Below are positions 12,751 through 48,337 of a stretch of 64,000 bases of DNA, in pieces (positions within the stretch are counted from its first letter, which is position 1; every line of letters starts with the position of its first letter). This stretch comes from an uncultured virus (IMG/VR IMGVR_UViG_3300031994_000090) (lineage: Duplodnaviria > Heunggongvirae > Uroviricota > Caudoviricetes). The DNA lies in the IMG/VR virus record IMGVR_UViG_3300031994_000090; one strand, 5' to 3'. Made by a program: the position numbers and the translations under genes. The notes under the pieces are model-generated. The model searched no databases, had not been told where the DNA came from, and saw only the letters and a list, made by a program, of their open reading frames with translations.

Positions 12751-12855
12751 AATGAATCAGTGATTGGTTTGTAGCGAATAGCCACCCGGTCAGAGGTGGC
12801 TATCCGAAGGAAGAATGGTGTCGGCGGGACGGAGCCCGCCTCCAAGAAAGAAGGC

Positions 12856-13395
12856 TTAAGCCTCGCTTGCGCTCGGTTTTTCAAGATGCGCCACGGGCAC
12901 AACAACGCAGGTGTTATACAAGTTGTTGCTGCCGAAGAAACCGTAGCCGCCACTCGCAACCCACGCGCCGCCGGCGCTGACACGAAGGCAAGACCAAAGG
13001 TAGGAACCTTCGGGGAGAAGGTCTGCGCCCTCTATCTGCTTCGCAAGGGCGTTGATTTCTTTCTGGTACTTCTTGATGGCTCCGGCGGTAAGGAGAGAAG
13101 GAATGTTGAACTTCTCTCCGATGCCACGCACGAACTTCGCTGCCGGGCTATCCAGCTTCAGCAGTTCATCGGTGCGCTCTTTGCAGAGGTCGGTGTCTTC
13201 AAAAAGAGCCTCAATCTCCGAATGGCCCGGCTCCTTCCAGTCGTCAATGCGACTGGCGTTAAGAAGTTTGCACTCCTTGTATTTGGGATACACCAGAATG
13301 GTCGCACCGTCAATCCTCGGAATTGAGATTCCTTCGATGGCATCCAGTTTCATTTCGTCTTCGCGACCTTCTTTGAAAATGAGTTTTGCTTTCAT
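12856..13395 (-). CDS. Remote DGR target protein (179 aa, C-terminal CLec-like variable region)
   Basis: C-terminus GSYLWSCLR...AW...VVVPVA is encoded by a 122-bp TR copy differing only at TR adenines. Confidence 0.9.
   Translation of the reverse strand: MKAKLIFKEGREDEMKLDAIEGISIPRIDGATILVYPKYKECKLLNASRIDDWKEPGHSEIEALFEDTDLCKERTDELLKLDSPAAKFVRGIGEKFNIPSLLTAGAIKKYQKEINALAKQIEGADLLPEGSYLWSCLRVSAGGAWVASGGYGFFGSNNLYNTCVVVPVAHLEKPSASEA
12887..13008 (-). repeat. DGR variable repeat VR2
   Basis: 18 mismatches to TR 48216-48337, all at TR adenines. Confidence 0.95.
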
Positions 13396-13468
13396 TTGTT
13401 GTGAAATTAAATTGGTTGAACATAAGGGTTGGCGCACTCCGTTCCGGCCAGGGAACGGAATGCAATGG

Positions 13469-13714
13469 TTAATCTTGGAAGTGCCCCTCCACAAGATAGA
13501 GAGAGAAGTCCTCGCCCTCACTGGTTTGACCGCAAATGTCAAACTCGTAAAAGCCCTTATCTGCATTGAACTTGTCTCGACGGTGACGAACCACCCACTT
13601 ATCTGCGAGGGCAAGAGAAAGGTCGCTTTCGAGCTGTTTCTTTGCATTTTCCCACTTGTGGTAATAGCGCTCAAACACTCGCCTGCCTACTTCTTTGACG
13701 TAGATTGTAAACAT
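13469..13714 (-). CDS. Hypothetical early protein
   Basis: Start MFTIYV. Confidence 0.6.
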   Translation of the reverse strand: MFTIYVKEVGRRVFERYYHKWENAKKQLESDLSLALADKWVVRHRRDKFNADKGFYEFDICGQTSEGEDFSLYLVEGHFQD

Positions 13715-13725
13715 GGCTACACCTC

Positions 13726-13944
13726 CTAAAGATAATATCTCAGCCCGTCGTCTGCGACGAACCATTTCTTCAGTACGAGAACTCCATTTACGGTGTTCTT
13801 CTTGCGGTTTACCACTTCTTCCAGAGGGAAGTCGCGGTAGTGTGTTGCGCCATAGCCGAATTTAATCTCGGCCCTCGTGGGGTTGCGATGATACGTGACA
13901 TGCTGCACCCCATTGATTATGGGGTTGAATAAACTTGTACTCAT
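13726..13944 (-). CDS. Hypothetical early protein
   Basis: Start MSTSLF after AACCAATCA. Confidence 0.6.
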   Translation of the reverse strand: MSTSLFNPIINGVQHVTYHRNPTRAEIKFGYGATHYRDFPLEEVVNRKKNTVNGVLVLKKWFVADDGLRYYL

Positions 13945-14095
13945 AGATTTGTGATGTTGATTGGTTGATAAAAGAGAAGCCACCCACTCGGTCAGGAGTG
14001 AATGGCTTGGTATTTATTAAAAATCCTTAATGCGGCTATCTCACGACAGTCTGTTGTTATGAATAAATCCCGCATCACTGCGGTCAATTACGATG

Positions 14096-14126
14096 CAAAT
14101 GTAATGATTTTTTGGCACCCTGCAAA
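14096..14126 (-). promoter_or_regulatory. Internal Bacteroidota promoter upstream of remote DGR target
   Basis: Minus strand TTTG-N19-TACATTTG. Confidence 0.65.
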
Positions 14127-14151
14127 ACGGCCAGGTCTTGCAGGGCGAGAT

Positions 14152-14796
14152 TCACTTCGCACGGTCCCACCAGTCTGGATAGGTGCCGTTGATTTCGTTG
14201 AGCCCGTCATAGAGGCTAATTACCAGCTCTTCGAGGGTTTCACGAGGAACATTCTTGATGTCGTCCTTTTTGAAGGTCGCATCCACTTGGTTGATAAGGG
14301 CGCGAAGGGGATTCTGCGGAGGATTGTACGATACAACCTTGCCGAATACCATGCACACGTCGCGTTGGCAAACGTAGCCGGAGTCCGTACACTGTTGGCC
14401 GTTGTACTGGTCGATTTCCTCAATCATGTCGTCGGTGACATCTGCAAGTTTGGGATATTCCATTCTCAGGCCCTCGCCCTCTGCGTATCCGTCATAGTAT
14501 TTAAGGCAGAAGTTGTGCTCCTTTTCGTCCCCGAAGAACTCTTTGGAAACCACTTCGATGTCCTCGGTTTCCTCGACATACTTGACTATCACGCCCGCAC
14601 CGTTTATCCAGTGCACTTCCCGTCCCTCGCGGAACCAGGCATCGGGAAATTCCTGACGGGTGCGCAGTACAATGCCACCGTAGGACATTTCACCGCCACC
14701 GACGATTTGCAGAATTGCATCCTCGCAGTCTGCGATAACGACATTCGCATTGTCGTCCACGCCTTCAAGTAAGGCTTTCAGTTCTTTTGCTTTCAT
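14152..14796 (-). CDS. Hypothetical acidic early protein
   Basis: Start MKAKEL after motif. Confidence 0.65.
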   Translation of the reverse strand: MKAKELKALLEGVDDNANVVIADCEDAILQIVGGGEMSYGGIVLRTRQEFPDAWFREGREVHWINGAGVIVKYVEETEDIEVVSKEFFGDEKEHNFCLKYYDGYAEGEGLRMEYPKLADVTDDMIEEIDQYNGQQCTDSGYVCQRDVCMVFGKVVSYNPPQNPLRALINQVDATFKKDDIKNVPRETLEELVISLYDGLNEINGTYPDWWDRAK

Positions 14797-14858
14797 AGTG
14801 ATGAATTTTATTGATTGGTTTGCTCCCATGGTCACGGTCGGGTGGCCATGGGAAAAGT

Positions 14859-15089
14859 TTATTCTCCCGCAGTGCAGAAGAAATCATCAGGAACGAAGTC
14901 AATGCCGTCGTACTGGCGGAAGATTACATCGTCAGGGACAATCTCGTCCGCATTAGCGACATCCCACATTGAGGGTTCATCGTAGTCCCGGTCCATCACT
15001 TCGGCAAAAGTGCCCTCGTTTACCAGTTCTACCATGTAGTTGTTTTTCAGTTCCGTGAGCTGTTCACGGGATAATTCCGTTACGTGCAT
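14859..15089 (-). CDS. Small acidic early protein
   Basis: 76 aa, D/E-rich. Confidence 0.65.
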   Translation of the reverse strand: MHVTELSREQLTELKNNYMVELVNEGTFAEVMDRDYDEPSMWDVANADEIVPDDVIFRQYDGIDFVPDDFFCTAGE

Positions 15090-15150
15090 AGTATTGATTT
15101 GATTGGTTGATTGACACCTTGCCTACGGTTCGGTGTAGGCAAGATGAAGG

Positions 15151-15513
15151 TTAGTCAAGCAAATCGCTTGGCCAGTAGCCGTAATCGCTCCCGTCGCCGG
15201 GGTGAGCGCCGAAGAAATATCCGTCCGGAGCATAAGCATCCAAGACATCAAACAAATCCTCCAGAAACATGGTCACATCTTCGGAAGACCAACGTTCGTC
15301 ATTCTCGCTCGTGTCACCGGCGGTAATCACGCAGAGATTCCAGTTGGCACCATTGATGCTCTGAATCATCTGCGCATACTCCATCGTATCCTTGATTGCT
15401 TCAAGGAATGTCGGAACCAGGTCGCAGTTACGCATCGTGCCGTGGATAAGGGTTGCACCAAGCGGAGCATAAATCACACTCCCGGTGCGTTCATCGGTAA
15501 ATTGTCTTTCCAT
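15151..15513 (-). CDS. Hypothetical early protein
   Basis: Start MERQFT; C-terminal APDGYFFGAHPGDGSDYGYW. Confidence 0.65.
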   Translation of the reverse strand: MERQFTDERTGSVIYAPLGATLIHGTMRNCDLVPTFLEAIKDTMEYAQMIQSINGANWNLCVITAGDTSENDERWSSEDVTMFLEDLFDVLDAYAPDGYFFGAHPGDGSDYGYWPSDLLD

Positions 15514-15569
15514 AATGATTGTTGATTGGTTGGCGCCAGTGTGGCGGTTCATGGCCACACTGACAAAGA

Positions 15570-16217
15570 TTAGTACGCAAAGGCGGTTCTCGCATACAAC
15601 GGCGCAGAGTGCTTGATTTGCTCCTTGCGCTTGTTGATGTGGTTTGTGAGGGCGGCTTTGTAAGCGACCATCGCCTTCTCGCGCCTGTCCTTCAATTCGC
15701 AGTCGATTGCGTTTTTGGCTTGCTGGATTGCATCTTCGAGGCCATCGTCGCCATAGAATCCCCAACAGGAATCAATGTGCTCTCCGTCCTCATCCTCTGC
15801 AACATATCCGTAAACCTCGCCTTCAAGGTACATGTTCCACTCGCTCACGACTGATTCAGCAATCTTTTCGGCCTTGGATTTCGCCCAGGACCAACCCTTA
15901 CGGCGTTTCACGCAGATAAATGCGTAGCCGTTGGAATAGTCCCAGCCACGGGTTGTACCCAGGTGGATGCAGATACCGCTATGGTCGTAGATGCTCACGG
16001 GGAAGATGTAAAATCCATTCAGGAACCAACGGTTCGTTTCTTCGATTGCATTTCTACAATCCTCTGCGGAAATACTCTCTGAATCCACGTTCAGACAGCG
16101 GTAATCCGCGCAGAGGAAACAATCTGGATTGTCCCAGTTTGCCGGGGATTCAGCATCCTCGTCGTAGCAGATTTTTATCGACATACCTTTGTAGCCAATA
16201 GTTTCTTTCTCGTACAT
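15570..16217 (-). CDS. Hypothetical early protein
   Basis: YDHSG...WD...YLEGEVYGY...DSCWGFYG. Confidence 0.7.
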   Translation of the reverse strand: MYEKETIGYKGMSIKICYDEDAESPANWDNPDCFLCADYRCLNVDSESISAEDCRNAIEETNRWFLNGFYIFPVSIYDHSGICIHLGTTRGWDYSNGYAFICVKRRKGWSWAKSKAEKIAESVVSEWNMYLEGEVYGYVAEDEDGEHIDSCWGFYGDDGLEDAIQQAKNAIDCELKDRREKAMVAYKAALTNHINKRKEQIKHSAPLYARTAFAY

Positions 16218-16278
16218 AGTGATTTAATTTTGATTGGTTGTGGCTCCCTCGCGGATTTTCACACCCGCAAGGAAATGG

Positions 16279-16548
16279 TTAGTTTTCGTAGCCGATGATG
16301 CGCTCCACGGCAGCAATAAATTCATCGCTCCCGTCAGGAATCCGGCCACCACCGCGCTCGGCATCATGCCGTTGCAGAATGAACGTGTGGATTGCATCTT
16401 TCAGAGCAAGTTCCAGTTCGAGGTTTTCTTCCTCATACGGCTCCTCCTCCAGTGCATCCTCCAGTTCGTCCATCACATCGTAGGCGCTGAGGTTTTCTTC
16501 GCCACTTTCGTAGCGGTCCATAAGTTCGGTGATTCTTTTCTTAAGCAT
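16279..16548 (-). CDS. Highly acidic small protein
   Basis: MDELEDALEEEPYEEENLELE. Confidence 0.65.
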   Translation of the reverse strand: MLKKRITELMDRYESGEENLSAYDVMDELEDALEEEPYEEENLELELALKDAIHTFILQRHDAERGGGRIPDGSDEFIAAVERIIGYEN

Positions 16549-16603
16549 AGTGATTGTGTAGATTGGTTGTTTGCGATGGTTTGCGGATTCCTCCGCAAGC
16601 CAC

Positions 16604-17053
16604 CTAAATCACGGCTCCCCACAAACTCATTCGGTGAGTCACTTGCTTACCGTTCACGGGCCCGTCCTTGACAAGATACGGTTTGAAACACCCGTCAAAA
16701 TACCGGGGCCGGAACGTGATGCCGTTGAACTCAAAACTTCCCTGCGTGCCGAACATTTCAAGCAGTTCGTCGAGGGTTTTGTCAATCTCGATACGACCGC
16801 ACTGGCGATATTTCTCGAATAATGCACCATTGTACCGCTCTGCTGCCTTGCAGTTCCGTTTCGGACTGATTTCAAGCGTCAGTTCGTCGCGGAATGGTTC
16901 GCCCTCGCGTTTCTTGCCGTAAATTCGCAGGGATTCGAGATAACCCCAGGGGGAATAATCCCAAATGAACCCAAGGCGTTTGAGGTACGCAAGACCGCGT
17001 TTGTTCACAACCTCCCCAACGGGAAGATTCTGAAAGTATTCTTTCATTTTCAT
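16604..17053 (-). CDS. Hypothetical early protein
   Basis: Start MKMKEY after motif. Confidence 0.6.
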   Translation of the reverse strand: MKMKEYFQNLPVGEVVNKRGLAYLKRLGFIWDYSPWGYLESLRIYGKKREGEPFRDELTLEISPKRNCKAAERYNGALFEKYRQCGRIEIDKTLDELLEMFGTQGSFEFNGITFRPRYFDGCFKPYLVKDGPVNGKQVTHRMSLWGAVI

Positions 17054-17116
17054 AATTAGTGTGATTTGATTGGTTATGGCGGTTCGCCGGGTAATCACAC
17101 CCGGAAAACCATTCAT

Positions 17117-17497
17117 CTAATTCCATAACGGGAATTTGTGAGAATCATACCAAGGATGATACGCAAGGGCTTTTCGTATAGCCGTCTTGAGGCTCCTTCC
17201 ATGATAGAGCAGTATCTGCCCCTCTCTGCCAAGTTCATCAATGTCCGGGCATAAATTATCCCACACATAGAAACTCCCGTCGTTGTCGTCGCTAATATAA
17301 CAACGTGTGCTGGCGTGTCCGTCCTTGATAATGTCGGAAATGTCGGCCAACTTCGTGCCTGGTTCGTCATTACCCTGGAGCCAACATATTTGGCGTCCAA
17401 ATGGCTGATAGACTCCAGTAATCTCTTTTTTCGAGTTGGTGTGCACATATCCATTCAGTGCGGCAGCAATAGTGTTGCAGAATTTCTCGTAATTCAT
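17117..17497 (-). CDS. Hypothetical early protein
   Basis: ORF after motif. Confidence 0.6.
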   Translation of the reverse strand: MNYEKFCNTIAAALNGYVHTNSKKEITGVYQPFGRQICWLQGNDEPGTKLADISDIIKDGHASTRCYISDDNDGSFYVWDNLCPDIDELGREGQILLYHGRSLKTAIRKALAYHPWYDSHKFPLWN

Positions 17498-17558
17498 AGC
17501 AAATAGATTTGATTGGTTCGGTTCCTCCCGGTTCGTTTCAGGAGCCGGGAGAAATGGT

Positions 17559-17909
17559 TCATTTTGCAGGGACTGCTACAAGAGCCGGAGAATCACGCGA
17601 GAAAAGGAGGCTCGTCCAACGCAGTCGTTTCACACGGTAGGCGTGACCGCAGTCGATGGCCATCTGCGCATATTCACGCATACGCCATACTTCCTTTTTG
17701 CAGAACGCCATGAAATTCTCGTCGCTCTGCTCCATGCCGGTTTCATCACACACTTCGCAAAACAGCTCCCACATGGGGTCCTCTATTTCGCAGATATTCA
17801 TTGCGTGGCCGTGCCACACAATCTCCGGGTCGGCCCAATCTCCGTGGTACACAAAACGGAATCCGTAAATTCCCATCCAAAGGGGCCAGGGTGATTTGTT
17901 CTTACTCAT
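17559..17909 (-). CDS. Hypothetical early protein
   Basis: Start MSKNKS; HGDWADPEI. Confidence 0.6.
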   Translation of the reverse strand: MSKNKSPWPLWMGIYGFRFVYHGDWADPEIVWHGHAMNICEIEDPMWELFCEVCDETGMEQSDENFMAFCKKEVWRMREYAQMAIDCGHAYRVKRLRWTSLLFSRDSPALVAVPAK

Positions 17910-17971
17910 AATTGTGATTGATTGGTTTGTTGGTGCCCGTTCGTCCGGCCAGGGGCGAGCGGGCAAATTGT

Positions 17972-18274
17972 TCACTGCAAGTCCACGGCACAAAGCGCCA
18001 CGCGGATGCAACTCTTTTCCTCTGGTTTCGCGTACACCTTTGCAGCAGACAGTTCGTAGGTCCCGTCCACGGTTGAGAATCCGGTGGCCGGAGAAATCCG
18101 TTCAACCCGTCGCTCAGGATAAACCCGGTCGTAGAGGTTCGTCAGGCGCGACTCGTATTCATCCACCGCTTTTGCGTAGGATGAAAACCAGGCGTGCGTT
18201 ACGCACCGGGATTCCAGTTTGTTCCCGTCCTCGTCAAACCACTCGTGTTTGACACAGTAGATAGATTTTGCCAT
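17972..18274 (-). CDS. Hypothetical early protein
   Basis: Start MAKSIY after motif. Confidence 0.6.
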   Translation of the reverse strand: MAKSIYCVKHEWFDEDGNKLESRCVTHAWFSSYAKAVDEYESRLTNLYDRVYPERRVERISPATGFSTVDGTYELSAAKVYAKPEEKSCIRVALCAVDLQ

Positions 18275-18337
18275 AGTAAATTGTGATTGGTTCATGGTGC
18301 CCTACGGTTCGTTCAAAAACCGCAAGGCAAAAGACGG

Positions 18338-18979
18338 TTACAAGTTGCGCTCGTATGCAAAATCGTCGTTCATTATACTTTCCGCAACGCAAAGCAAATG
18401 ACCTTCTGAATTTTGCTGGCGGTATCCACCCTGGAAACGGGTGACACTGCCACAGTTCCACGAAAGGACCGGCTGATATTTCAATCGTCCCTTCGCTGCC
18501 GGAGAAACCGCACCGTAATACAGTCCGATGGTTGAATCGTCAATCTCATACTGGTCCCGAAGGAAATACTGCATCAATTCCGGATTTCGTTCGTCAATCG
18601 GAAATTCCACGGTCAAATCCAGGTCGTTGTGGATGTACTCAATCGTGAGAATCGTTGCGAACTGCTTCGGAGCACGGCTCGTTTGCATGCGATACGGGAG
18701 CATGGCGTAACCATTTTTGCTCCCGGTGTACACGCGACAATTCTCCGTCATGGGCAAATGGTTCAGAGCGTTCTGCGCATCCCGTTCGGTTAGCGCCTTG
18801 AGTCGGTCGTCGGCCCTGTGCACCACGACATGAATCTTTCCTTTCTGCGTGAGCGAATTTCCATCTATGATAACGATTTGGATTCCAAACTGCTGAAGCG
18901 GTTCGTTGTACTTGTTCTCCAGTTCTGCGAGGCGAATTTTTTCTTCAAATTCGGCCCTCATTTTAGCGATGTCGTTCAT
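18338..18979 (-). CDS. Hypothetical early protein
   Basis: Start MNDIAK after motif. Confidence 0.65.
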   Translation of the reverse strand: MNDIAKMRAEFEEKIRLAELENKYNEPLQQFGIQIVIIDGNSLTQKGKIHVVVHRADDRLKALTERDAQNALNHLPMTENCRVYTGSKNGYAMLPYRMQTSRAPKQFATILTIEYIHNDLDLTVEFPIDERNPELMQYFLRDQYEIDDSTIGLYYGAVSPAAKGRLKYQPVLSWNCGSVTRFQGGYRQQNSEGHLLCVAESIMNDDFAYERNL

Positions 18980-19043
18980 ACTTTGTGAATTTTGATTGGT
19001 TTGTGCGCACGGTGGTTCGTTCAGGAACCACCGCACATGCGGT

Positions 19044-19328
19044 TCATTCGTCCTCGGAATCGTCCTCGTTCTCCTCCAGTTCGATTCCCAGTTCGTTGGC
19101 TAAATCCTCAACGGTATTGTCACCGTAGGAATAGAACATTTCTTCGATGCCCTCCAGGTCCTCGCCGTGAGTTTCCGCGTAGAAATCCACGGCTTCACAA
19201 ACACGGCTCTCGGAAATCGCTGCGCGTTCCATCAGTTCGTTCAAGGTCTCCTCGCTCTGCGTGCGGAAGAAAAACCCACGCACGGACGGGTTCGTCCAGA
19301 GCTGTTCAAATGTAATTTCAGCTTTCAT
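19044..19328 (-). CDS. Highly acidic small protein
   Basis: C-terminus ELEENEDDSEDE. Confidence 0.65.
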   Translation of the reverse strand: MKAEITFEQLWTNPSVRGFFFRTQSEETLNELMERAAISESRVCEAVDFYAETHGEDLEGIEEMFYSYGDNTVEDLANELGIELEENEDDSEDE

Positions 19329-19397
19329 GATAGTATTTTGATTGGTTGATTCGTGACCGGAAATTCCGCCAGGAATAACCGGCCTTGTCACGGTTCG

Positions 19398-19643
19398 TTA
19401 CAGAGAGAGCATCACGGCACCGGTTCGTTTCAAGCAGCGGTCGTAATCCCGTTCGTTGTACCAGTTCAATGCGGTACGCATCGCACGGTTCGTTTCGTTC
19501 ACGGAGTTTCCCGCAGCCCGCAGTTCACGGCTCGCATCAAGCATAGCCTGAATTGCGGTTCGTCTGGCACGGTTCGTTTCCTTGATTCGTTTGACCTCAC
19601 CAGGGAAAAGCCTCTCAATAACTTTGCAGATAATCTTTTTCAT
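19398..19643 (-). CDS. Basic hypothetical protein with ETNRA repeat
   Basis: Start MKKIIC. Confidence 0.55.
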   Translation of the reverse strand: MKKIICKVIERLFPGEVKRIKETNRARRTAIQAMLDASRELRAAGNSVNETNRAMRTALNWYNERDYDRCLKRTGAVMLSL

Positions 19644-19710
19644 AATAGCAGAATTTTTGATTAAACATTTGGTGCATAGGTGGATAATCACACCCACCTA
19701 CACAATCACT

Positions 19711-19929
19711 TTAACGCATCGCATACTGCACCGGGAGATTGTTCGCCGGGGAAATCCGTTTCCCTATCTCCGCCAGGAAATTCGAGCGATACGCAGCACG
19801 TGCGGACTCGTTCGTGAACTGCCGGGAGAAAATCTCCGCAATCGTTTCGCAGTCGTTCATCAGGGCGAAATTGCGCCCGTCCTCGCTCCCAGTCTGACTG
19901 GCAACGTGGATAATGCTCGTTTTACACAT
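19711..19929 (-). CDS. Hypothetical early protein
   Basis: Start MCKTSI after motif. Confidence 0.5.
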   Translation of the reverse strand: MCKTSIIHVASQTGSEDGRNFALMNDCETIAEIFSRQFTNESARAAYRSNFLAEIGKRISPANNLPVQYAMR

Positions 19930-20317
19930 GGTTGATTTTTGATTGGTTAAGATATTTTGCAATGGTGTGCAGCGTTCAACCGCACACCACCCAGGCGAAT
20001 TTTTACAGCTCGTTCCGTTCCTGTTTTCCTCTCCCGGCATCCATATTCCAGGGCCCGTTTTGAATGTCTGTGACGACAAGCCATTTCCGCCCGTTCAATC
20101 AATCATTCACTATTTTTTGCAGTGGAGAATCATTCGCGTAAATTGCTATCCATTCACCAGCTTCCAGGATTCATTCATCCCCTCAACCGTTCACCGTTCA
20201 TCCAGGGAATCACGTTCCCCAGATTCAGGCAACCACTGCAAGCCCGTTCAAAATACGGTGCAGATTTGCGAGCGCACCAGGAACACACGAAAATAACGGC
20301 CACACAAAAATTTGTGC

Positions 20318-20352
20318 AGTCGTTCCGTTCGTTCGTTCGTTCCGTTCGTTCG
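20318..20352. repeat. GTTC/GTTCC microsatellite
   Basis: GTCGTTCCGTTCGTTCGTTCGTTCCGTTCGTTCG. Confidence 0.8.
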
Positions 20353-20515
20353 CTATTTCAAAGGGCATCGGATGCCGGGACTACTTCGCGCCCGTCCTGG
20401 ACTTATACCTATTTTTTGGGGCGTGGTGTAAATTTCACTTTGCACCACACGCAAAACAAAATGCCCGGCCAAAATAGCCGGGCAAATTGTAATATTAAGA
20501 TAGTGCCAAAAAGAT

Positions 20516-21016
20516 TTATTTTGTAGTGTTTTCTTTGTAGATTGTTTCAAGGGCTTTAATAAATGCCGGAATTTCCGAAATAGCGACATTTGCCGGGACG
20601 TCAAATTTACGTATCTTGTGGAATTTTTCGTTTTCCGATGCGCTTAAATTGTCAATCATTTTTGCGGAAACAATAGCCGGGCCAAAAGTTTTGACGGCCT
20701 CGGAAAACGGCAAAGTTTCGGAAAATGTAGCGACGGCCTCGGAATCAGTAACGGCCCGGAAATTGTTTTCTATTTCCTCGGAAACAGTCCCGGAAACAAG
20801 GGCGGAAATATAGGCGGACTGAATTTGTATTTTTTCGTCCTTTGTCAAATATGCGCCCTTTTTGGACTGTGAAACAGTGATAACGGACGGCAAATTTATG
20901 CCGTTTTCGTTATAAAATGCCGTTACTACATTAAGACGGCTATTTCCGTCTAAACTTGTAAAAGTGGCTTTTTGTGCCGTGGTGCAATACTTTGCAAAAT
21001 TTTCTATCTTATTCAT
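20516..21016 (-). CDS. Hypothetical protein, first gene of array (AT-rich)
   Basis: 166 aa ORF downstream of promoter at 21113. Confidence 0.7.
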   Translation of the reverse strand: MNKIENFAKYCTTAQKATFTSLDGNSRLNVVTAFYNENGINLPSVITVSQSKKGAYLTKDEKIQIQSAYISALVSGTVSEEIENNFRAVTDSEAVATFSETLPFSEAVKTFGPAIVSAKMIDNLSASENEKFHKIRKFDVPANVAISEIPAFIKALETIYKENTTK

Positions 21017-21112
21017 AACAAAAAAAAGGATTAAGTTAATAAAAATTTTTAATAATAGAATCAGGGCAAAGGGATGCCCGGCACTATCTTAATATGTCAA
21101 AGAACTGCAATA

Positions 21113-39764: not shown

Positions 39765-40349
39765 ATGGCTTGGCTACCCTTCATAAACAACTACAAACCC
39801 TTCTACATCCAGACCGCAAATGACACTGCGGCCTGGAGTACGGAGGTCTATGGACTTGTCGCCAAGTCCAATCCCTATCCTATCATGCCAAACCCGAAGG
39901 CCCCTTACAACAATGATTTCAAGGATGCCAACGGGGACGATGAATATGTACAGGATATGTTCTACGAGTCCCAGGAAATCAGCGTCAAGTTCTACTGCAA
40001 GGTTCCGGGGGCAAGCGAAGCGGAGAAGTTACTTCGTCACCAGGTAGCGGCCTTCTTTGAGAAGATAAAGAAGGGCGAGTTCCTGATTTATGATTCCTAC
40101 ACGGGGATAGGGCGCCAGAAGGTGCGTTATGCCGGGTACGAGGAAGATTCCTTTGTGGCAAGGGATGATTACGCCCGGGTGATTTTCACCGTGAAATTCA
40201 AGGTGAACGACCCGCTTACGCAGATGTATTACAACGACGTGACGGGGCAGATTACTGACGACCCCGCAGAGGGGCGCACAGACCTTCTCGGAAGCGAGGA
40301 TAATGCCTATATCATCACGGAAGAAGGACTTTACATTCAGGTAGCATAA
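39765..40349 (+). CDS. Distal tail protein-like
   Basis: After tape measure gene; FKVNDP motif. Confidence 0.6.
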   Translation: MAWLPFINNYKPFYIQTANDTAAWSTEVYGLVAKSNPYPIMPNPKAPYNNDFKDANGDDEYVQDMFYESQEISVKFYCKVPGASEAEKLLRHQVAAFFEKIKKGEFLIYDSYTGIGRQKVRYAGYEEDSFVARDDYARVIFTVKFKVNDPLTQMYYNDVTGQITDDPAEGRTDLLGSEDNAYIITEEGLYIQVA

Positions 40350-42607
40350 TGGCACGGATAACGATATACGACAAGAGTGGAAATCCTAAACTCAATTCCC
40401 ATGGAGACCGAATCTATGGGAAGATGAAGTATGTGGGGCAGACCATGAGCATATCCTATCTGGAGTTCAATATCGTCTCCCCCTACCCGATTGCCTGGAA
40501 CGTGGGTGATTATGTGGATTACGGGGCCGGATTGATTGGCATCAGAAATATCCGCTTCATGCTTTTCACCATCCCGCAACCAAGAAAGGATGCGGAGGGT
40601 GGCCTTTATGGTGGCGGATTCGTCTATTCCGGCGTGCAGTTCCACGACCTCGGGCAAATCCTCACCCTTGCTCCTTTTACCGACATGCAGGTTGAAAATG
40701 ACAACCTCATTCATTATTCGACCAGGAGCGGCCTTTCAACCTTTGAGAACGTGGCCGGTATTCTTGCCCGGCTCCAGGCTTGTGCCGATGCTTTCCGGCT
40801 CTCTCTTGGCGCCGACGACCCGATGAAGGGGGCGAAGTTCTATTTTCGCCTTTGCACTCGCGACACTACCGCCGCACACCTTACCGTGGCGCCTAACAAC
40901 ACTCTCGGCGGCGAGGATATAGACAAATATGAGGAGTTGATTGACGAGGCCCGTGCAGTCACCATTGACGGCTTTGTGCTTGACGGCTTGAATGATATTC
41001 AGAACGTCTGGCCCGCTATCGGGTGGGACATGAAGTTCTCTCTCTGCGATTGGTATTATGATTATGATGCCCATAACCGCATCGTGTATGCGGAGGACAT
41101 GCTTACGGGTATTGCTTTTAACTACTTCTATCGCAGCGCGACAAGCAGAACCCCGAGCAGCATAAAGGACGAATGGGGGCAGGAGGTTGGCACTCTCCCC
41201 GAGAGGATAGTCTTTGTTACCATTGGCGCAGTGAACTTCGTTTCCAATGCCGAGTATTCTGTTCCCTTCCAGCGCCATAACGGCCTTGTGAACCTCCGTA
41301 GATACATTACCAACCAAGACACTTTCCTCACTCGCCTGGTGGCTTATGGCTCCGAAAGGAATCTTCCCGGAAGGTATTACAACGGGAAGGATATTCTCAA
41401 CGCGGATTCGGTGGATATTCCGAATCTCATGCTGCCTATCTCCACTTGGGGGAAGACCTACGGGCGTATTCACGATATGGTGATGAGCATCGACTATGAG
41501 ACGGTGCTGAATGAGGACGGGAGCATCAAGACCGCAACCGCCTTCTACAACAACATCAAACATGTCTATACTTACTCCTACAATTCTACGAACCTCACAT
41601 ACGAGGTTAGGGATAAGACCGGCGAGGTGGTGGCAAGCGGCAGTTACACTGCGACTTCTTTCCCTACGACGGATATTCTTCCGCAGACCTATCGTGAGGT
41701 GCAGAGGCTTCTTCCCGATGCCCGCAAGGCGTTTATAGAGGACGAAGAAAAGATTGCGATGTATGGGGTTATCACGAAGACCGTGCGTTTTGATAATGAT
41801 AATGACGGGGACATCTATCCCACTTTGCAGGGCATGACCTTGCAGGATGTGATAGATTCCATTGGGCTTTCAAAATTGAAACCCACCGCTACCAGTAAGA
41901 CCGACGGGCTTGTGCTGAAAAAGGTTGGCGACGACTGGGTGTCCTATATCGCCGGTCTTGACGATGATATTCAGAAGGAAATCTCCGAGGACTCGAAGTA
42001 CAGGGTGATGCTTCTCCGTTACGGGTTTGCCCGTCGCGGCCAGTGGTTCCCGATGAAGGGTGCCATGGGTTCCGCCATCCGTCGCCAGAACCCCCGCCCG
42101 GACCAAATGTCAACTCACACGACGCGCCGCTATCCCTCCACGACGAAGACGAAGAGGGAGGTTGAGCCGAACTCGTATCAGCTTGTAAGGCGGGGCGATT
42201 CCAACGGGCTTTCACCGGAGCGCTACCGCATTATTGGCCGTGATATTTTGCTTCACGGCTCTATGCCATCACATAGCCAGCTCACCTATGCGACAAGGAA
42301 TGATAGGATTTACGCCGGTGCCACGCTCGCAACCAGACTTGGGGCCGCAGTGGTCCCGCCACGCATAAGGAAGCATGACATTTATACTGCGAAGTCTTCC
42401 GGCATCACATATTATTCCAACTCGAAAAAAGATGGTCTGACAGACCTCTATATCGGGCTTTATCACTATGAACCGGATAGGGGTTGGGTGCTTGTGAGTA
42501 ATGTATGCAAGATACGCGGAAGGGCGAAACGCCCCGGATATACGACCAAATACGACAATACGAAAGTGTGGTTTGGAAATGAGGACAACATTATCCTCGG
42601 GGGATAA
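40349..42607 (+). CDS. Tail/baseplate hub protein (N-terminal part)
   Basis: TRLVAYGSERNLP, NLMLP, DIYPT motifs. Confidence 0.65.
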   Translation: MARITIYDKSGNPKLNSHGDRIYGKMKYVGQTMSISYLEFNIVSPYPIAWNVGDYVDYGAGLIGIRNIRFMLFTIPQPRKDAEGGLYGGGFVYSGVQFHDLGQILTLAPFTDMQVENDNLIHYSTRSGLSTFENVAGILARLQACADAFRLSLGADDPMKGAKFYFRLCTRDTTAAHLTVAPNNTLGGEDIDKYEELIDEARAVTIDGFVLDGLNDIQNVWPAIGWDMKFSLCDWYYDYDAHNRIVYAEDMLTGIAFNYFYRSATSRTPSSIKDEWGQEVGTLPERIVFVTIGAVNFVSNAEYSVPFQRHNGLVNLRRYITNQDTFLTRLVAYGSERNLPGRYYNGKDILNADSVDIPNLMLPISTWGKTYGRIHDMVMSIDYETVLNEDGSIKTATAFYNNIKHVYTYSYNSTNLTYEVRDKTGEVVASGSYTATSFPTTDILPQTYREVQRLLPDARKAFIEDEEKIAMYGVITKTVRFDNDNDGDIYPTLQGMTLQDVIDSIGLSKLKPTATSKTDGLVLKKVGDDWVSYIAGLDDDIQKEISEDSKYRVMLLRYGFARRGQWFPMKGAMGSAIRRQNPRPDQMSTHTTRRYPSTTKTKREVEPNSYQLVRRGDSNGLSPERYRIIGRDILLHGSMPSHSQLTYATRNDRIYAGATLATRLGAAVVPPRIRKHDIYTAKSSGITYYSNSKKDGLTDLYIGLYHYEPDRGWVLVSNVCKIRGRAKRPGYTTKYDNTKVWFGNEDNIILGG

Positions 42608-42730
42608 AAAATAAGTGAGAAAAAGAGAAGGGAACAACGCATGCCACCCAATAAACCCAGGTGCACGGGCCCCAACACCAAGTCTCACTTACGATAGGAC
42701 AAAGATAGGAAGAATTATTGAAAAAGCAAT

Positions 42731-44554
42731 ATGGCAGTTTACATTAAGATAGACGACCCGGCGAAATACTACCAGCCGACACTCGTAACTGACGCGGCCA
42801 CCGACAGGGTGGACGAGATTGCCGTCGGCTCCAACGGTGGCGGCAAGGGCTATATTGCAAATTCGGGGCAACAGGATGCGCCAATGACGCTTGTTGTGGG
42901 TGAAAGAAAACTTATGGAGGTAACGCAGGGATTTGCCTTTCTTCTCGGCAGCTTCTCCGGAGTGTGGGCTGGTGTTGGGCAGGTGAAGATTAAACTTATT
43001 GATGCGTCCAATAGGGTTTTCTTTAAGGAGTTCCTTACGGATAATCCGCTTTCTTCGTATTCTTACGCGGTATATCTCTCCGTTGTCGATGCCGCCGGGA
43101 ATATGGTTAATAAACCCCTCTCGGTTACATCTGAATACGATTCCACTCTTCAGAAATACAAGCACACCTTCTCGCTCAACGCAAGCGTGTTGACCTTCGG
43201 GACGACTGGCGTATCCTCGCCGCTTGCCGACCTCTCGAAAGTATCCGTGTATTTGCGTGGTTATTTTTACGAGACGAACCACGAACTTGTAGAGTATATC
43301 GGCGGTGGCTATGAGTTGGACGCCGCGCCAGGTGGATTCCCGCTCTATCTGCGTGGAATAGCCGGGAAGTCCTGGCGCGTGAGCGCTGCGGTGGGGAACA
43401 TCTATTTCTACGGTATTTCTTCCGGCACCTTTCCATCTAACGGGGTTGAGTTTATGCCGAAGTCGGAACAAATACCCGTTACTATTAGTTCCAATTACTC
43501 CACCACCCAGATACTCCGTGCTGGAATAATTGCTGTAGTTCGCACCGGCAGTAACGAGAATACCCTGGACTATGTTCCCATAAGCCAGAAGTCTTCTGCC
43601 TCGGGGAGCCTCGATGTGAGCATGCGAACTATTCGCATAAAGGGCGTTGCTGGAAGGACGCTGAAACTGAAAATCTTTGATAAGCAGAACCACGGATGGT
43701 CCTTGTCCGTCGGCACGGGCTCTGCTTTTATTTCTCTTTCCCGTAGTTCTGGGACCGGAACCACCACAGTTAATGTTACTATTAGTAACGCTGTTATTTA
43801 CACTGCGCGATATGGCATTATCACCCTTACAGATTCCACCAATTCGCAGACCTACCAGATACCCGTCGTGCAACTCTGCACGGAGCGGTATTTTGCCGTA
43901 GAAGAAACCGTCTCGGGGCAGGCGAAGACCATTAAGGCGTATGCCGCCACTGTCGTTAAGGTCTCTTTTGAAATGGAGGTGTCATATTATAACGCGCCCT
44001 CTTTCGCCCTTAAAATTCGCCAACTCGGGTTTAATATAAACGATTTCGCCGCCGGAACCAACGGTCTTGCAACGCTCAACATGAAATCCGGTAAGTGTGC
44101 CGGACGCGATTTCAATATCACGAACTGCGCTTACGACCCGATACATGACCGTTGGGTGTTAACTCTTGACCGACTTGAGGATACTTCCGTCGGTATGGTG
44201 TTTCCGAATATCGCCTACCCCATCGAGGCCGGAGACCGTTTCGTACTCACGGATATACTAATGCCGGAAGTTTATATCATCGTGGCCGGAAAGAAACTTC
44301 TCGCAAGGGCCCGCGTGTATTATGACCAACATTCCAAGTTGAAATACCTCTACGATTTGGAGGTGGACTCAAAATGGATGGGGTCTCGCGGCGCGGTGCT
44401 CTTTCCTGGCATGTATATGCAGATTGTGGATTCAGACCTCATCGGTGCAAATCCCGAATATGTGCTTATTGATACCGTAACCATCACCGAGAATGACAGT
44501 AATATCCCTGTTTACAAGGTGACACTACGAGAAAAACTGTATTTACCAGAATAA
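42731..44554 (+). CDS. Tail protein with BACON domain (hub C-terminal part)
   Basis: W...SGTGTTTVNVT..N...RYGIIT...IPVVQ (about 43690-43875); MKSGKCAGRDF, GDRFVLTDI.MP. Confidence 0.65.
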   Translation: MAVYIKIDDPAKYYQPTLVTDAATDRVDEIAVGSNGGGKGYIANSGQQDAPMTLVVGERKLMEVTQGFAFLLGSFSGVWAGVGQVKIKLIDASNRVFFKEFLTDNPLSSYSYAVYLSVVDAAGNMVNKPLSVTSEYDSTLQKYKHTFSLNASVLTFGTTGVSSPLADLSKVSVYLRGYFYETNHELVEYIGGGYELDAAPGGFPLYLRGIAGKSWRVSAAVGNIYFYGISSGTFPSNGVEFMPKSEQIPVTISSNYSTTQILRAGIIAVVRTGSNENTLDYVPISQKSSASGSLDVSMRTIRIKGVAGRTLKLKIFDKQNHGWSLSVGTGSAFISLSRSSGTGTTTVNVTISNAVIYTARYGIITLTDSTNSQTYQIPVVQLCTERYFAVEETVSGQAKTIKAYAATVVKVSFEMEVSYYNAPSFALKIRQLGFNINDFAAGTNGLATLNMKSGKCAGRDFNITNCAYDPIHDRWVLTLDRLEDTSVGMVFPNIAYPIEAGDRFVLTDILMPEVYIIVAGKKLLARARVYYDQHSKLKYLYDLEVDSKWMGSRGAVLFPGMYMQIVDSDLIGANPEYVLIDTVTITENDSNIPVYKVTLREKLYLPE

Positions 44555-44566
44555 ATTCATACAACT

Positions 44567-46324
44567 ATGGCAGACGACGTAATTAAAATCTCAGGATTGA
44601 CGGAATCGACCGATTTCGCCAATCTGTTCACCATCGGAACCCACACCGATGAGCAGGGCAACGTCACCAGCGTAAAGGTTTCTCTTGCGAACCTTCTCAA
44701 AGTGGTGAGCGATGTCACCATCACCGAGTCCTCCGAGGATGGCGGGGTCAATGTAGTGGTCTTCACCCTCCTCAACGGGACGACCTACACCCTCAACGTG
44801 CTCAACGGCACCAAGGGCTCGCAGGGTATTCAGGGCCCCACGGGTGCAACCGGCGCGACCGGCCCGAAGGGTGATACCGGTAACGGTATCTCCAGCATCG
44901 AGGCCGTATCCGTATCCACCGAGAGCGGCGGACACTCCGTGTATCGTATCACCATGACGAGCGGAGAGACCTTCGATTTCACCGTGTATAATGGCAACGA
45001 ACTTGCGGAGAATCTCGCTTCTTGGGAGGGCTCCACTATCAATGCGGATTACACTCAGGAGCAGGCCGTTGACACCACCGGCGGAACACTCTCGATTGAC
45101 TCCGATGTTTCCGCCCAGCTTGTGAAACTGGAGGCGAAGACGGATTTCTCCGCAGCCGCGCTCTGGGCCACCGGTTTCAACCTTCTTCGTCGCGCCCGCA
45201 CCGTCGGGAGCGGCTATGCCATCATGGTTCCGGCGCTTCCCTTCGGGGCCTTCGGCACTGCTGAACAGCCAAACGGCCTCCTCTTCACGGACGCCTATGG
45301 CAACAACCTTGCGCCCACCGTGTACTTCAAGCCTCTCGCAAGTGGCGTTCCGGCCTCCGTCACGGATGGCACCCGTATCACCCCGACGGTTGTGAACGGT
45401 TATAACTTCTACTGCACCTCCGAGGCTGGCTGGATTGTCATTTCCGGCATCACTCTCGCCTCGACTTGCGCCCATATCGCATGGAGCCGTCGCTACGACG
45501 AGTATAAGGCCGTGAATGACGCCCAAGATGCCGGTGCGGAAATCTCCCTCACGGCCATCATCAATGCTTGCCATTCCTATGGGCTTTTGCTTCAGGTTGG
45601 GAATGTTGCGGATTCCATTGAAGCCGTAAGCGAAACCCAGATGAAGTGGAACCGTAAGGTTGAGAGGGTCCAGCCTTCCTGGACTAACGTGCTTCAGGAG
45701 GATGGCGCAACCTATCTCCATGAGGCTGTTATTTCGGGCATGAAGAGCGGAGGCTCCGCCACGTTCATGAACGACAACATCGCCCTTTCCGTGGACGGGA
45801 CGACGGTCTCCTATTCCGACACCAACGCCGACGCATCTACGGACTACGTGAAGTATGAGCTGGCGAGCCCCGAAAGCGGCACCGTCAACCTCACTTCCAC
45901 CTTTGCGGTCGAAGACTGGGGTATGATTGTGCTCCAGACTGCAACCGGCGAGGCAAGCCTTACTATCGCTTACGCTCAGGGCATCCCCGACACGCTCCGC
46001 GAAATTGCCTCCAACGGCTTCAAGTCCGTCAAGGGAGACCTCGGCGCTCTGGCCGACGAAGTGGAGAAGCAGAGGTATGAAGTGCCCTTTGAGGCCGCGT
46101 TCGACCGCATGCCGATGCTCGGAGGTCAACCCGGTATCCTTTTCTGCGACGGCACTCCTACTGCGTCCAACAAGCCTACGAACTGGATTGATTTCCTCGA
46201 CGGCGGGTACAACTGGACCGGTCTCCCGAATGTCGAAGGGCAGCACGTGTTGGATTTCACCAATCATATCGACTACTATGGTTGGCTCAATCCCGCAACC
46301 GGTCTGCTTGAATGGAAACACTAA
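44567..46324 (+). CDS. Tail fibre protein with short collagen-like segment
   Basis: KISGL N-terminus; GSQGIQGPTGATGATGPKGDTG. Confidence 0.7.
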   Translation: MADDVIKISGLTESTDFANLFTIGTHTDEQGNVTSVKVSLANLLKVVSDVTITESSEDGGVNVVVFTLLNGTTYTLNVLNGTKGSQGIQGPTGATGATGPKGDTGNGISSIEAVSVSTESGGHSVYRITMTSGETFDFTVYNGNELAENLASWEGSTINADYTQEQAVDTTGGTLSIDSDVSAQLVKLEAKTDFSAAALWATGFNLLRRARTVGSGYAIMVPALPFGAFGTAEQPNGLLFTDAYGNNLAPTVYFKPLASGVPASVTDGTRITPTVVNGYNFYCTSEAGWIVISGITLASTCAHIAWSRRYDEYKAVNDAQDAGAEISLTAIINACHSYGLLLQVGNVADSIEAVSETQMKWNRKVERVQPSWTNVLQEDGATYLHEAVISGMKSGGSATFMNDNIALSVDGTTVSYSDTNADASTDYVKYELASPESGTVNLTSTFAVEDWGMIVLQTATGEASLTIAYAQGIPDTLREIASNGFKSVKGDLGALADEVEKQRYEVPFEAAFDRMPMLGGQPGILFCDGTPTASNKPTNWIDFLDGGYNWTGLPNVEGQHVLDFTNHIDYYGWLNPATGLLEWKH

Positions 46325-46339
46325 TAAGCATTACAAGAT

Positions 46340-47602
46340 ATGAGTGAAATTAGATTAACCAAAAACCCCAAGCGCGGCGATGCCGTGCTGGGGGTTATCG
46401 GCACCAACCAGGTTGAATTTGCAACCCACGAGAGTATGTTGAGCGCATCGCTTGACACGAGCAAGTATGAATACATCGGCCCCGTGTTCAGGCGCAAGGG
46501 TAACGACGTGCTCTATGGATACCACACAACCGCGTCTCGTGTGTGGGCCGAGCGCTATTCCTACAAACTAACCGGGTACACGCTCGATGGTGCTGCCCAC
46601 ACCGGCGTACTTTCCATCCGCGAGGCGTCCGACTCCTGGGCCGCGAACCATGACTACACCGTTGCCTATGCGGCTTCTACGGTGGACGAAATGGTGACTC
46701 TGCTCAACACCTTCTTTCTCAACCCCACCAACGCGGTCTTCCAGACCCAGGACTGGTACGCGGTGAAGGAATCCGACGATTCAATCACTATTCACTTTGC
46801 CTATACAGACTGGAGGCAAGCAGGTTACAACTCCGGCAAGAGCGGATTCGCCCTTACGGCCAACCTTCTCCCGGATGTCACATCCCTTGCCAATATCCGC
46901 CGTAAGAGCGGGGCGACCGGAGGTGAAGGTGTTATCAGTTCATGGGAACGCGCTCTGGCGTATTTCCGGGGTGATAACTCCTCCACTACATACAATCCAA
47001 ACGCCGATGTGACGGACGTCAAGAGGACCTATCCAATCTGTCTTCCCGGATACCTCGGAACGAGTCAGTACCAGAGCGACCACTGCGCCTTCCTTCGCTC
47101 CATCTACGGAGAAGGCGAAGCCGGTTGGCTCAAGTTCATGCAGAGCTGTCTGCCGGTGCTTCCTTCCGACTGGGGTAACATGGGCATGCGTGACGGAAAG
47201 GCCAGGACTCAACTCCTCGCCTCGAAGTTCTATACGAGCCACAAGAAGACCGACCCCACCCCGCTTTGTCCTGCTGCGTACTACGCCGCGAATATCGAAA
47301 CCGCTACTCTGCCGAAGGGAACCTTCTCTCTCGGTACGACGGAAGAGGTCTTCGAGATTCTTGACGGAATCAAGTACGGAACCAACGGAAGCCGCGATGC
47401 GGACAAGGTGAACGCCCTTCAGAACCGCATGGGTAAGAGTGCAATTTCAAATGGTTCCTACCTTTGGTCTTGCCTTCGTCTCAGCGCCTTCGGCGCGTGG
47501 TATGCGTATGGCTACGGCGGTTTCTTCAACTACAACGGCTTGTATAACGCCTACGTTGTTGTGCCCGTGGCGCATCATAAGCTGAGCGACAGCGAAGACT
47601 AA
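46340..47602 (+). CDS. DGR target protein, putative receptor-binding adhesin
   Basis: C-terminal VR1; follows tail fibre and precedes avd. Confidence 0.9.
   Translation: MSEIRLTKNPKRGDAVLGVIGTNQVEFATHESMLSASLDTSKYEYIGPVFRRKGNDVLYGYHTTASRVWAERYSYKLTGYTLDGAAHTGVLSIREASDSWAANHDYTVAYAASTVDEMVTLLNTFFLNPTNAVFQTQDWYAVKESDDSITIHFAYTDWRQAGYNSGKSGFALTANLLPDVTSLANIRRKSGATGGEGVISSWERALAYFRGDNSSTTYNPNADVTDVKRTYPICLPGYLGTSQYQSDHCAFLRSIYGEGEAGWLKFMQSCLPVLPSDWGNMGMRDGKARTQLLASKFYTSHKKTDPTPLCPAAYYAANIETATLPKGTFSLGTTEEVFEILDGIKYGTNGSRDADKVNALQNRMGKSAISNGSYLWSCLRLSAFGAWYAYGYGGFFNYNGLYNAYVVVPVAHHKLSDSED
47453..47574 (+). repeat. DGR variable repeat VR1
   Basis: 17 mismatches to TR, all at TR adenines. Confidence 0.95.
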
Positions 47603-47615
47603 ATCTTAAACCTTC

Positions 47616-47641
47616 GGACGGCGGGCTCCGTACCGCCGTCC
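47616..47641 (+). promoter_or_regulatory. DGR target-recognition hairpin
   Basis: GGACGGCGG-GCTCCGTA-CCGCCGTCC, just after target stop codon. Confidence 0.75.
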
Positions 47642-47658
47642 ATAACTTCCTATTTGAT

Positions 47659-48114
47659 ATGGATGAAAGCAAATCACTGAAAGAGCAAATAGACTATTCC
47701 GTTCCTAAATACCAGATGGCTTCGATTTACAAAGGATTGAAGCGGTTGGCAAAGCGCGTTCATAAACTCCAGTTCGAAATGACGAAGGAGAACAAACGCA
47801 TTTATGGGGACCGTATTAGCGATAGGGTTCTGGATTGTATAGAGGATTTTGTAATCGCCTATGATTTTCAAGACGAGAGGCCGCATTACTATATGAAACT
47901 CACCGCAGATATTCATATTGTTATGAGTCTCATGGGTGAAATCATAGACGAGCATATCCTTATTCCGAAAGCCCATGTAACTGGCAGTGATGGCAGAACC
48001 GTACCAAATAAGCAGGACAAACTCGTGATTCAGATTTACGAAGAGATAGGAAAAATTGACACAGACATGGGTAAATGGAGGGTGTCGGCAATTAGCAGCA
48101 AGCCTGGCCAATGA
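47659..48114 (+). CDS. avd: Avd-like accessory protein
   Basis: 151 aa helical protein between target and TR; IGKIDTDMGKW end. Confidence 0.7.
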   Translation: MDESKSLKEQIDYSVPKYQMASIYKGLKRLAKRVHKLQFEMTKENKRIYGDRISDRVLDCIEDFVIAYDFQDERPHYYMKLTADIHIVMSLMGEIIDEHILIPKAHVTGSDGRTVPNKQDKLVIQIYEEIGKIDTDMGKWRVSAISSKPGQ

Positions 48115-48215
48115 AATCCCTTGAAATATGAGGGTCGGTCCAGACAGTCTGCTCATCTGAATAAGATGGAGCCCATACTGTCATTTACAGTTAAGAACAA
48201 GAAAATGGGCGTTGA

Positions 48216-48337
48216 GGTTCCAACCTTTGGTCTTGCCTTCGTAACAACGCCAACAACGCGTGGAATGCGAATGGCAACAACGGTTTCTTCAACAACAACA
48301 ACTTGTATAACACCTACGTTGTTGTGCCCGTGGCGCA
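48216..48337 (+). ncRNA. DGR template repeat (TR)
   Basis: 122 bp, 14 AAY codons, between avd and RT. Confidence 0.95.

Follow-up and report, generated by a model that had tools for sequence, protein, structure and literature searches.

The diversity-generating retroelement (DGR) of Bordetella phage BPP-1, with the gene order mtd-avd-TR-brt, has a single target: adenine-specific transfer from a template repeat (TR) to a variable repeat (VR) alters the C terminus of the C-type lectin (CLec) fold of Mtd, the tip of the tail fibre. A hairpin inside the 24 bp directly after the VR is required for homing and functions in either orientation, and an inverted target is functional (Guo 2011, PMC3240598). 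Phage DGRs with two targets have also been described. Wu et al. 2018 reported 'many examples' in which an adjacent target is accompanied by a non-adjacent one within 50 kb, and about half of the DUF1566-class targets in that survey are short, single-domain proteins (PMC5758913). The cultured Bacteroides uniformis phages Bacuni F1–F4 of Hedzet et al. 2021 carry a target 'on a distant part' of the genome (PMC8143477); Baykov et al. 2023 described two-target phage DGRs with tentaclins (PMC10743442); and the pairing of a large with a small target appears both there and in a study of Faecalibacterium prophages (PMC11792537). Here we analyse a stretch of 64,000 nucleotides (nt) from an uncultured virus of the Caudoviricetes (IMG/VR record IMGVR_UViG_3300031994_000090; hereafter the window), in which a DGR with one TR has two targets: the last gene of the tail module and a gene of 179 amino acids (aa) that lies 35 kb away on the opposite strand. 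The adjacent-plus-remote layout is already published for Bacteroides phages, and this case is a further example; the novelty implied by an earlier note on this DNA was overstated, since Wu et al. 2018 and Bacuni phage F1 show such layouts.

Results

One template repeat matches two variable repeats

The TR (48216–48337, plus strand) is 122 nt long, has 32 adenines and is rich in AAC/AAT codons. We aligned it without gaps over its 122 nt to VR1 (47453–47574, plus strand) and to VR2 (12887–13008, minus strand). The mismatches, 17 in VR1 and 18 in VR2 as the earlier note had counted, all fall on TR adenines (17/17 and 18/18), with 0 non-A mismatches in either VR, which is the TR/VR pattern of a DGR. 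With 32 adenines among 122 positions, the probability of every mismatch landing on A is 2e-12 for VR1 and 3e-13 for VR2. The substitution spectra of the two repeats are unlike (T8/G8/C1 in VR1, G14/T4 in VR2), which bears out the claim that one TR has given rise to two independently mutagenised VRs. Both VRs are in frame, each at the 3' end of its own gene, and in that frame 18 codons of the TR, most of them AAC or AAT, have A as their first or second base. Homology stops at 48337/48338, where both VRs have T and the TR has G. Scanning both strands of the window with up to 12 non-A mismatches allowed, we found no fourth TR-like copy.

Another conceivable origin is ordinary duplication of the 3' end of a gene, the mismatches representing normal divergence or chance. 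Nothing favours this beyond the bare existence of three repeats. It is contradicted by the confinement of 35/35 mismatches to TR adenines (P about 1e-12 per VR), by the reverse transcriptase (RT) and Avd-like genes beside the TR, and by the same pattern in four other phages (see below). We consider duplication or chance refuted, with a probability close to nil.

Each VR is followed by its own GC hairpin. One, with a 9-bp stem, lies about 42 nt 3' of VR1 (47616–47641, plus strand), and the other, GGCGGG/CCCGCC, lies about 47 nt 3' of VR2 (12823–12840, minus strand); the core GGCGGGCTCCGT is common to both. The 86-nt stretch that encloses the VR1 hairpin folds at -17 kcal/mol (z -4.06), and folding revealed no comparable hairpin downstream of the TR (-3.9 kcal/mol, z 0.03). 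A hairpin at each VR and none at the TR is the arrangement of a DGR. The likeness to BPP-1 extends to the position 3' of the VR but not to the spacing, the hairpins here lying farther away, about 42–47 nt past the end of TR homology. Folding also detected a hairpin 3' of the VR for 8/8 VRs in four RT-bearing phages (the window, G002, G009 and G027), with stem sequences that vary from phage to phage; a search for perfect stems misses most of them. In a relative from X3, a run that, like X1 and X2, we used as assembled contigs, paired changes occur at the stem partner positions 12825/12838 and 12827/12836. These are consistent with compensation but, with indels close by, only suggestive. That BPP-1 homing tolerates an inverted target (PMC3240598) agrees with the opposite-strand position of VR2.

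The cassette adjoins the tail module

The cassette has the order tail-module target, Avd-like four-helix protein, TR, RT. In this it resembles Bacuni F1, likewise a siphovirus, which has an adjacent DUF1566 target, Avd, TR and RT where its tail module ends (PMC8143477). The RT (48367–49545, plus strand, 392 aa) matches PHROG 1423 (E 2.4e-19), contains YGDD, and is 30% identical to the DGR RT of Bacuni F1 (E 1e-51, 383 columns) and 84% identical to its counterpart in the relative G002; no PDB chain was matched by sequence.

Between the adjacent target gene and the TR lies a gene for a 151-aa protein (47659–48114, plus strand). An AlphaFold2 (AF2) model built with 8 homologues is a helical bundle (predicted local distance difference test, pLDDT, 84.8) with helices H17-40, H43-69, H76-97 and H118-132. 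Foldseek matched this model to the Avd of the Bordetella phage DGR (4dwl_D, TMt 0.75, root-mean-square deviation 2.7), and Avd chains of the DGR ribonucleoprotein (8ub7, 8ub8, 8ubb, 8ube) were among the matches; over all Avd matches TMt is 0.60–0.75 but the E-values are weak (0.09–0.6). Pfam and NCBIfam gave no match at E ≤ 0.01, and no Avd family at looser cut-offs either. By position and modelled fold we count the protein as a putative Avd-type accessory protein, comparable to that of BPP-1.

The adjacent target gene (46340–47602, plus strand, 420 aa), which carries VR1, is the last gene of the tail module and follows genes assigned by PHROGs to the tape measure (34803–39728), Dit (39765–40349) and fibre-like proteins. 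Its product matched no family in Pfam, NCBIfam or PHROGs, and the ESM Atlas gave no named family. Over its C-terminal 66 aa, and nowhere else, the product resembles the remote target protein (58% identity), and on the strength of this identity the tip of the tail-module protein would be expected to adopt a CLec fold.

The remote target is predicted to be a single lectin-fold domain

The gene that carries VR2 occupies 12856–13395 on the minus strand. Its ATG at 13395 coincides with the conserved N terminus of its family, MKAK(I/L)IFKEG, which supports the 179-aa open reading frame (ORF) as real, and by inspection the N terminus has no hydrophobic stretch, in agreement with the absence of a signal peptide claimed before. 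We built an AF2 model from a 42-sequence alignment (pLDDT 91.7; predicted template modelling score, pTM, 0.89). In the PDB, Foldseek placed first 4eps, the CLec-type tip of a Bacteroides ovatus fimbrial protein (E 8.5e-4), and then the C-terminal (DUF1566) domain of Lcl (8q4e, E 3e-3) and many C-type lectins. Against BFVD there were 16 matches at E ≤ 0.001 (best E 2.6e-9; TMq 0.71–0.78 over 176–188 columns), led by phage proteins named 'DUF1566 domain-containing' and by C-terminal tips of long tail fibres, and the nearest ESM Atlas clusters are named DUF1566. By sequence, Pfam gave no match for the protein up to E 10, its DUF1566/Lcl_C model (PF07603) included, and NCBIfam and PHROGs gave none either. 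The structure prediction proposed beforehand thus returned the expected CLec fold. Because the fold matches span 176–188 columns, the entire protein is, in the model, one stand-alone DUF1566-type CLec domain with no further anchoring domain.

Bacuni F1 also has a second, distant DUF1566 target with its VR at the 3' end, and its authors matched both targets to 4eps, the top PDB match for the VR2 protein too (PMC8143477). In record MT635598 this distant target (Bacuni_F1_00026, 224 aa) has DNA polymerase A on one side and cytosine methylases on the other, and its VR differs from the TR at TR adenines in 16/18 mismatches. The two small proteins have a distant resemblance at most, in an hhalign alignment limited to the C-terminal 94 columns (E 1.5e-4, probability 51%). 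The arrangements differ as well: the Bacuni target is 12.5 kb off on the same strand of a 40-kb genome, whereas ours is 35 kb off on the opposite strand of a genome of at least 64 kb, in a temperate phage with two tyrosine recombinases, and within a block of small unannotated genes. A further likeness is to the phage-associated DGRs of Wu et al. that have an adjacent and a non-adjacent target in the same prophage, and to their target category 'd' / CLec2 (DUF1566, DUF823, Fib_succ_major); that survey supplies no functional context for non-adjacent phage targets (PMC5758913). The paradigm of category 'd', Legionella LdtA, is a surface lipoprotein, whereas the VR2 protein shows neither a signal peptide nor a lipobox. 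Tentaclin DGRs are similar in having one TR, two unrelated CLec proteins and a VR β-hairpin as in 4eps, but in them the cassette contains both targets, one VR is at the N terminus, and the second target belongs to the DUF6273 type (PMC10743442). In the literature covered, which leaves out bioRxiv supplements and most subscription journals, we found no published function for a DGR target in a replication module.

Variation in the family is concentrated at template-adenine codons

A word-indexed search gave 66 clusters related to the VR2 protein at E ≤ 1e-3 among 197 candidates, and a profile search of 1.84 billion representatives gave 164 at E ≤ 1e-3, of which 94 reach ≤ 1e-10 and 35 reach ≤ 1e-30. 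Most full-length matches have 160–310 aa, and long proteins match in the C-terminal half only. Among 1414 candidates for a fused long form there was a single partial match. Proteins considered as longer members of the family, such as P0025, P0048 and P0056, were set aside, as they resemble read-through into adjacent ORFs and show no structural domain by eye. Separately, a 2581-aa protein (P0136) has 23 separate stretches that match family profile positions 9–61; in other proteins, the beta portion at the N terminus of the small protein may be a repeatable module. Neither megablast of positions 10000–22000 nor tblastn of the VR2 protein found a match in the phage collection. The search of genome contigs returned 3 loci only, one of them on a Bacteroides sp. 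scaffold, a slight pointer to the host.

We measured mean column entropy in the 23 homologues with at least 65% identity. The 18 TR-A codons average 2.40 bits, as against 0.40 bits for the other codons of the VR (24) and 0.51 bits for the other 129 residues, and 23/23 of these homologues differ at TR-A codons. The prediction that variation is restricted to TR-A codons was thereby upheld between populations.

The two-target layout recurs in relatives with a reverse transcriptase

We identified 42 viral loci with a family member, including one of the window's own DNA. With the window RT as query, an RT was found in 6/41 records, and in 2/22 of those that are at least 90% complete. The Pfam family RVT_1 adds one record with another type of RT, leaving 34/41 without. 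In this additional record (G015) the RT at 42445–43080 scores 76.6 bits against RVT_1 and was missed by the DGR RT query; it probably belongs to a non-DGR retroelement. The VR of the small gene fits the TR beside the RT in 4/6 RT-bearing records (G002, G018, G009 and G027), with 19/20, 14/15, 19/19 and 14/14 mismatches, respectively, at TR A, and in all four an additional VR adjoins the cassette. Around the VR2 gene, G002 is syntenic with the window. Since these four relatives share the layout while their RTs are 29–84% identical, we conclude that the adjacent-plus-remote arrangement recurs. The question whether related phages keep the remote target, raised in the earlier note, thus has a positive answer for four phages besides the window. 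Within 10 kb of the family gene, no TR-like copy was present at any of the 42 loci; two weak matches are not A-specific.

Most family members are in phages without a reverse transcriptase

We then counted third bases at codons equivalent to TR-A codons, leaving out L001 (identical to the window) and L023, L036 and L042 (frame anomalies). The window gene has C in 82% and T in 18%, and five RT-bearing loci have C in 76%. At the 34 RT-less loci C accounts for 69% and T for 20%, versus 25% C in the remainder of the same genes. The NNC signature thus persists at these codons in the RT-less copies. In 20/30 RT-less members we detected a hairpin of ≤ -9 kcal/mol within 40 nt 3' of the VR, and no TR copy was found in six complete RT-less genomes. 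One complete RT-less record (G004, L061) has a stretch at 58645–58756 that is weakly similar (63% identical) to the VR of its small gene, and may be another gene with a CLec tip.

We considered diversification in trans of these RT-less copies, but the comparisons fall short of demonstrating it. The two records of the pair with the cleanest A-specific pattern, L022/L034, have a completeness of 65% and 61%. In L020/L032, both complete, the entire VR differs, including 21/72 scaffold bases, and the difference looks like cassette exchange. The TRs of RT-bearing phages match the VRs of complete RT-less phages poorly, with 5–12 non-A mismatches at best.

The VR2 sequence might also be a frozen record, written by the DGR in the past, inactive now and kept for fixed binding. 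Two observations point this way. In contigs from the probable source sample a single contig spans VR2, with 0 differences in run X1 and in X2; the additional pieces that align to VR2 in these runs are the phage's own TR and VR1 cross-mapping. In one RT-less lineage (L014, L025 and L029) the VR is better conserved than the remainder of the gene, with 0/123 nt and 0/17 variable codons different, the rest of the gene being 86–91% identical. However, minor variants are hidden in contigs, and the single haplotype therefore gives no reading of present activity in that population. A frozen VR2 is also at odds with the absence of any non-A mismatch to the resident TR over 122 nt, with the intact hairpin, and with the divergence of all 23 close homologues at TR-A codons. 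We judge a frozen VR2 improbable.

Genomic context of the remote target

We mapped the window by PHROG annotation of 118 ORFs. The head/tail module (29506–47602, plus strand) includes the major head protein, a 1641-aa tape measure, Dit and fibre-like proteins, and an endolysin is annotated at 50857–51546. We also annotated six relatives with PHROGs (L017, L020, L029, L004, L011 and L028). In 6/6 the family gene is outside the tail genes; upstream of it are replication and recombination genes (for example Erf, RecT, Gam, SSB, NinB, a DnaD-like loader, PAPS reductase, polynucleotide kinase), and downstream are DNA methylases, a RusA-like resolvase or a dUTPase, followed by terminase. In the window, the block of small genes that includes the VR2 gene is flanked by portal/terminase genes on one side and by a second tyrosine recombinase, an HNH gene and an integrase on the other, and 26/30 ORFs between 8410 and 23854 have no Pfam, NCBIfam or PHROG match.

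The VR2 gene is the last of a three-gene unit. Upstream on the same strand are two small ORFs (13726–13944 and 13469–13765), the first of which matches phrog_38643, of unknown function; we found no homologues of either beside other family members. Upstream of the unit, positions 14096–14126 on the minus strand match TTTG-N18-22-TAnnTTTG, a Bacteroidota-type promoter consensus; the promoter placed at 14096 by the earlier note accordingly stands as a candidate. The motif occurs 5 times in the window versus 0.76 expected, the remaining sites being 5825/5970 (divergent repressor/early region), 21113 (head of the small-gene block) and 28583. The divergent matches at 5825–6000 separate leftward early genes from rightward repressor-like genes (6032–7054), a configuration that looks like a lysogeny switch. 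Hairpins with a CTGACCG loop flank the three-gene unit at 13977–14008 and 12778–12803 (minus strand), the only 2 sites of this motif in the window versus 0.15 expected. They may be terminators or cassette boundaries, and boundaries would make the unit moron-like.

Tyrosine recombinases at 7051–8220 (plus strand) and 9602–10444 (minus strand) lie on either side of an HNH/NUMOD4 homing-endonuclease gene (8410–8967, minus strand). The syntenic stretch of G002 (L002) has both recombinases, and we found no match to the HNH ORF in it. The two ends of the window (1–5400 and 52831–64000) have minus-strand genes of early type (DnaD-like loader, NinB, Sak4, methylases, PAPS reductase, MazG). The longest contig listed for the cluster that contains a protein identical to the VR2 protein has 67,128 bases, and for this reason the window probably covers the greater part of a phage genome that is circular or circularly permuted. 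The phage is a temperate siphovirus whose host is probably a member of the Bacteroidales from a ruminant gut.

Discussion

VR2 has no non-A mismatches, has its own GC hairpin, belongs to a family whose variation is confined to TR-A codons, and has counterparts in the same layout in four other RT-bearing phages. We conclude that VR2 is no relic but a genuine second target of the DGR. The explanation that we favour overall, and hold to be slightly more likely than not, is a complete two-target DGR whose remote product is a soluble hypervariable binder and not a receptor-binding tip of the tail. Under this explanation, A-error-prone cDNA from the single TR would replace two recipient sites, namely the 3' ends of the last tail-module gene (VR1) and of the 179-aa gene (VR2), the latter 35 kb off on the other strand. 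The recipient sites would be marked by the A-poor 3' end common to the repeats together with a GC hairpin 40–47 nt downstream, a hairpin that the TR lacks. The remote protein, as a single CLec domain with nothing extra to anchor it on the virion, would be made apart from the tail genes and would act inside the cell, during infection or lysogeny, or in the lysate. Its expression timing, its absence from virions and its ligand are the parts of this explanation that we infer.

Several observations weigh against this explanation. The RT scores 26.8 bits against RVT_1, under the cut-off of 29.6. The DGR-specific RT motif is [I/L/V]GxxxSQ, and where Bacuni has IGNLFSQ the window RT aligns PGKIIMQ, which retains G and Q with S replaced by M (MQ versus SQ). 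The VR-side hairpins could be plain terminators. In two RT-bearing relatives (G031 and G042) we found no TR match to the small gene. The reading of the VR2 gene as non-structural draws its support from context, namely gene position and domain content, and as claimed in the earlier note it holds in part. The gene is outside the tail module, and in 6/6 annotated relatives and in Bacuni F1 its counterpart sits among replication, recombination or methylase genes. In the window itself, the recognisable replication genes (140–5400 and 52831–63969) are not beside it, and it lies within a minus-strand block of small unannotated ORFs running from 21016 to 8410.

The remaining points of this kind bear on an alternative in which the small CLec protein is an accessory adhesin of the virion that docks on the tail or capsid after synthesis and is merely encoded elsewhere, the DGR then diversifying two surfaces of the particle. 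Some phage virion proteins are encoded outside the main structural block. The DUF1566 fold is also the C-terminal tip of long phage tail fibres (BFVD ranks 2, 6 and 10), and the identity between the last 66 aa of the small protein and the tail-module target (58%) is in keeping with an adhesin. The authors of the Bacuni study interpret both of their targets as adhesins, and published views of small second targets favour adhesion (PMC8143477, PMC10743442). Against docking on the particle, the model has no anchoring domain beyond the CLec fold, the replication/methylase setting is the rule in the annotated relatives and Bacuni F1, and a fused tail-fibre form of the N-terminal half was not found among the candidates searched. 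Moreover, Bacuni F1 and F2 infect the same host although they are 15 single-nucleotide polymorphisms apart in the secondary VR (PMC8143477). We therefore regard a virion adhesin as possible but rather unlikely, and retain a soluble binder as the favoured identity of the remote product.

A wider proposal, which we consider doubtful, takes in the RT-less phages. Their copies would be orphan targets, either written in trans by DGRs of co-resident elements or left behind after loss of the cassette, and the whole family would consist of stand-alone, cytoplasm-made, hypervariable binders with a lectin fold. Such proteins would be a diversifiable counter-measure among replication and accessory genes, directed for example at variable host defence or exclusion proteins, or else a receptor decoy at lysis. 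For the VR2 protein itself, an anti-defence or host-takeover role is a hypothesis that the earlier note had already advanced.

Work on phage DGRs has so far centred on receptor-binding tail proteins and on host-range switching. The approach of the largest metagenome survey, by Roux et al. 2021, was unable, by its authors' own account, to detect remote targets (PMC8144416), and remote targets are therefore under-counted. A further question, prompted by the RT-less orphans, is whether a DGR can act in trans on a co-resident phage. Since the cultured Bacuni phages on Bacteroides uniformis share the layout, the function of the remote target is directly testable. A conserved, small, soluble-looking target among replication and accessory genes suggests that phages hypermutate an off-virion binder too.

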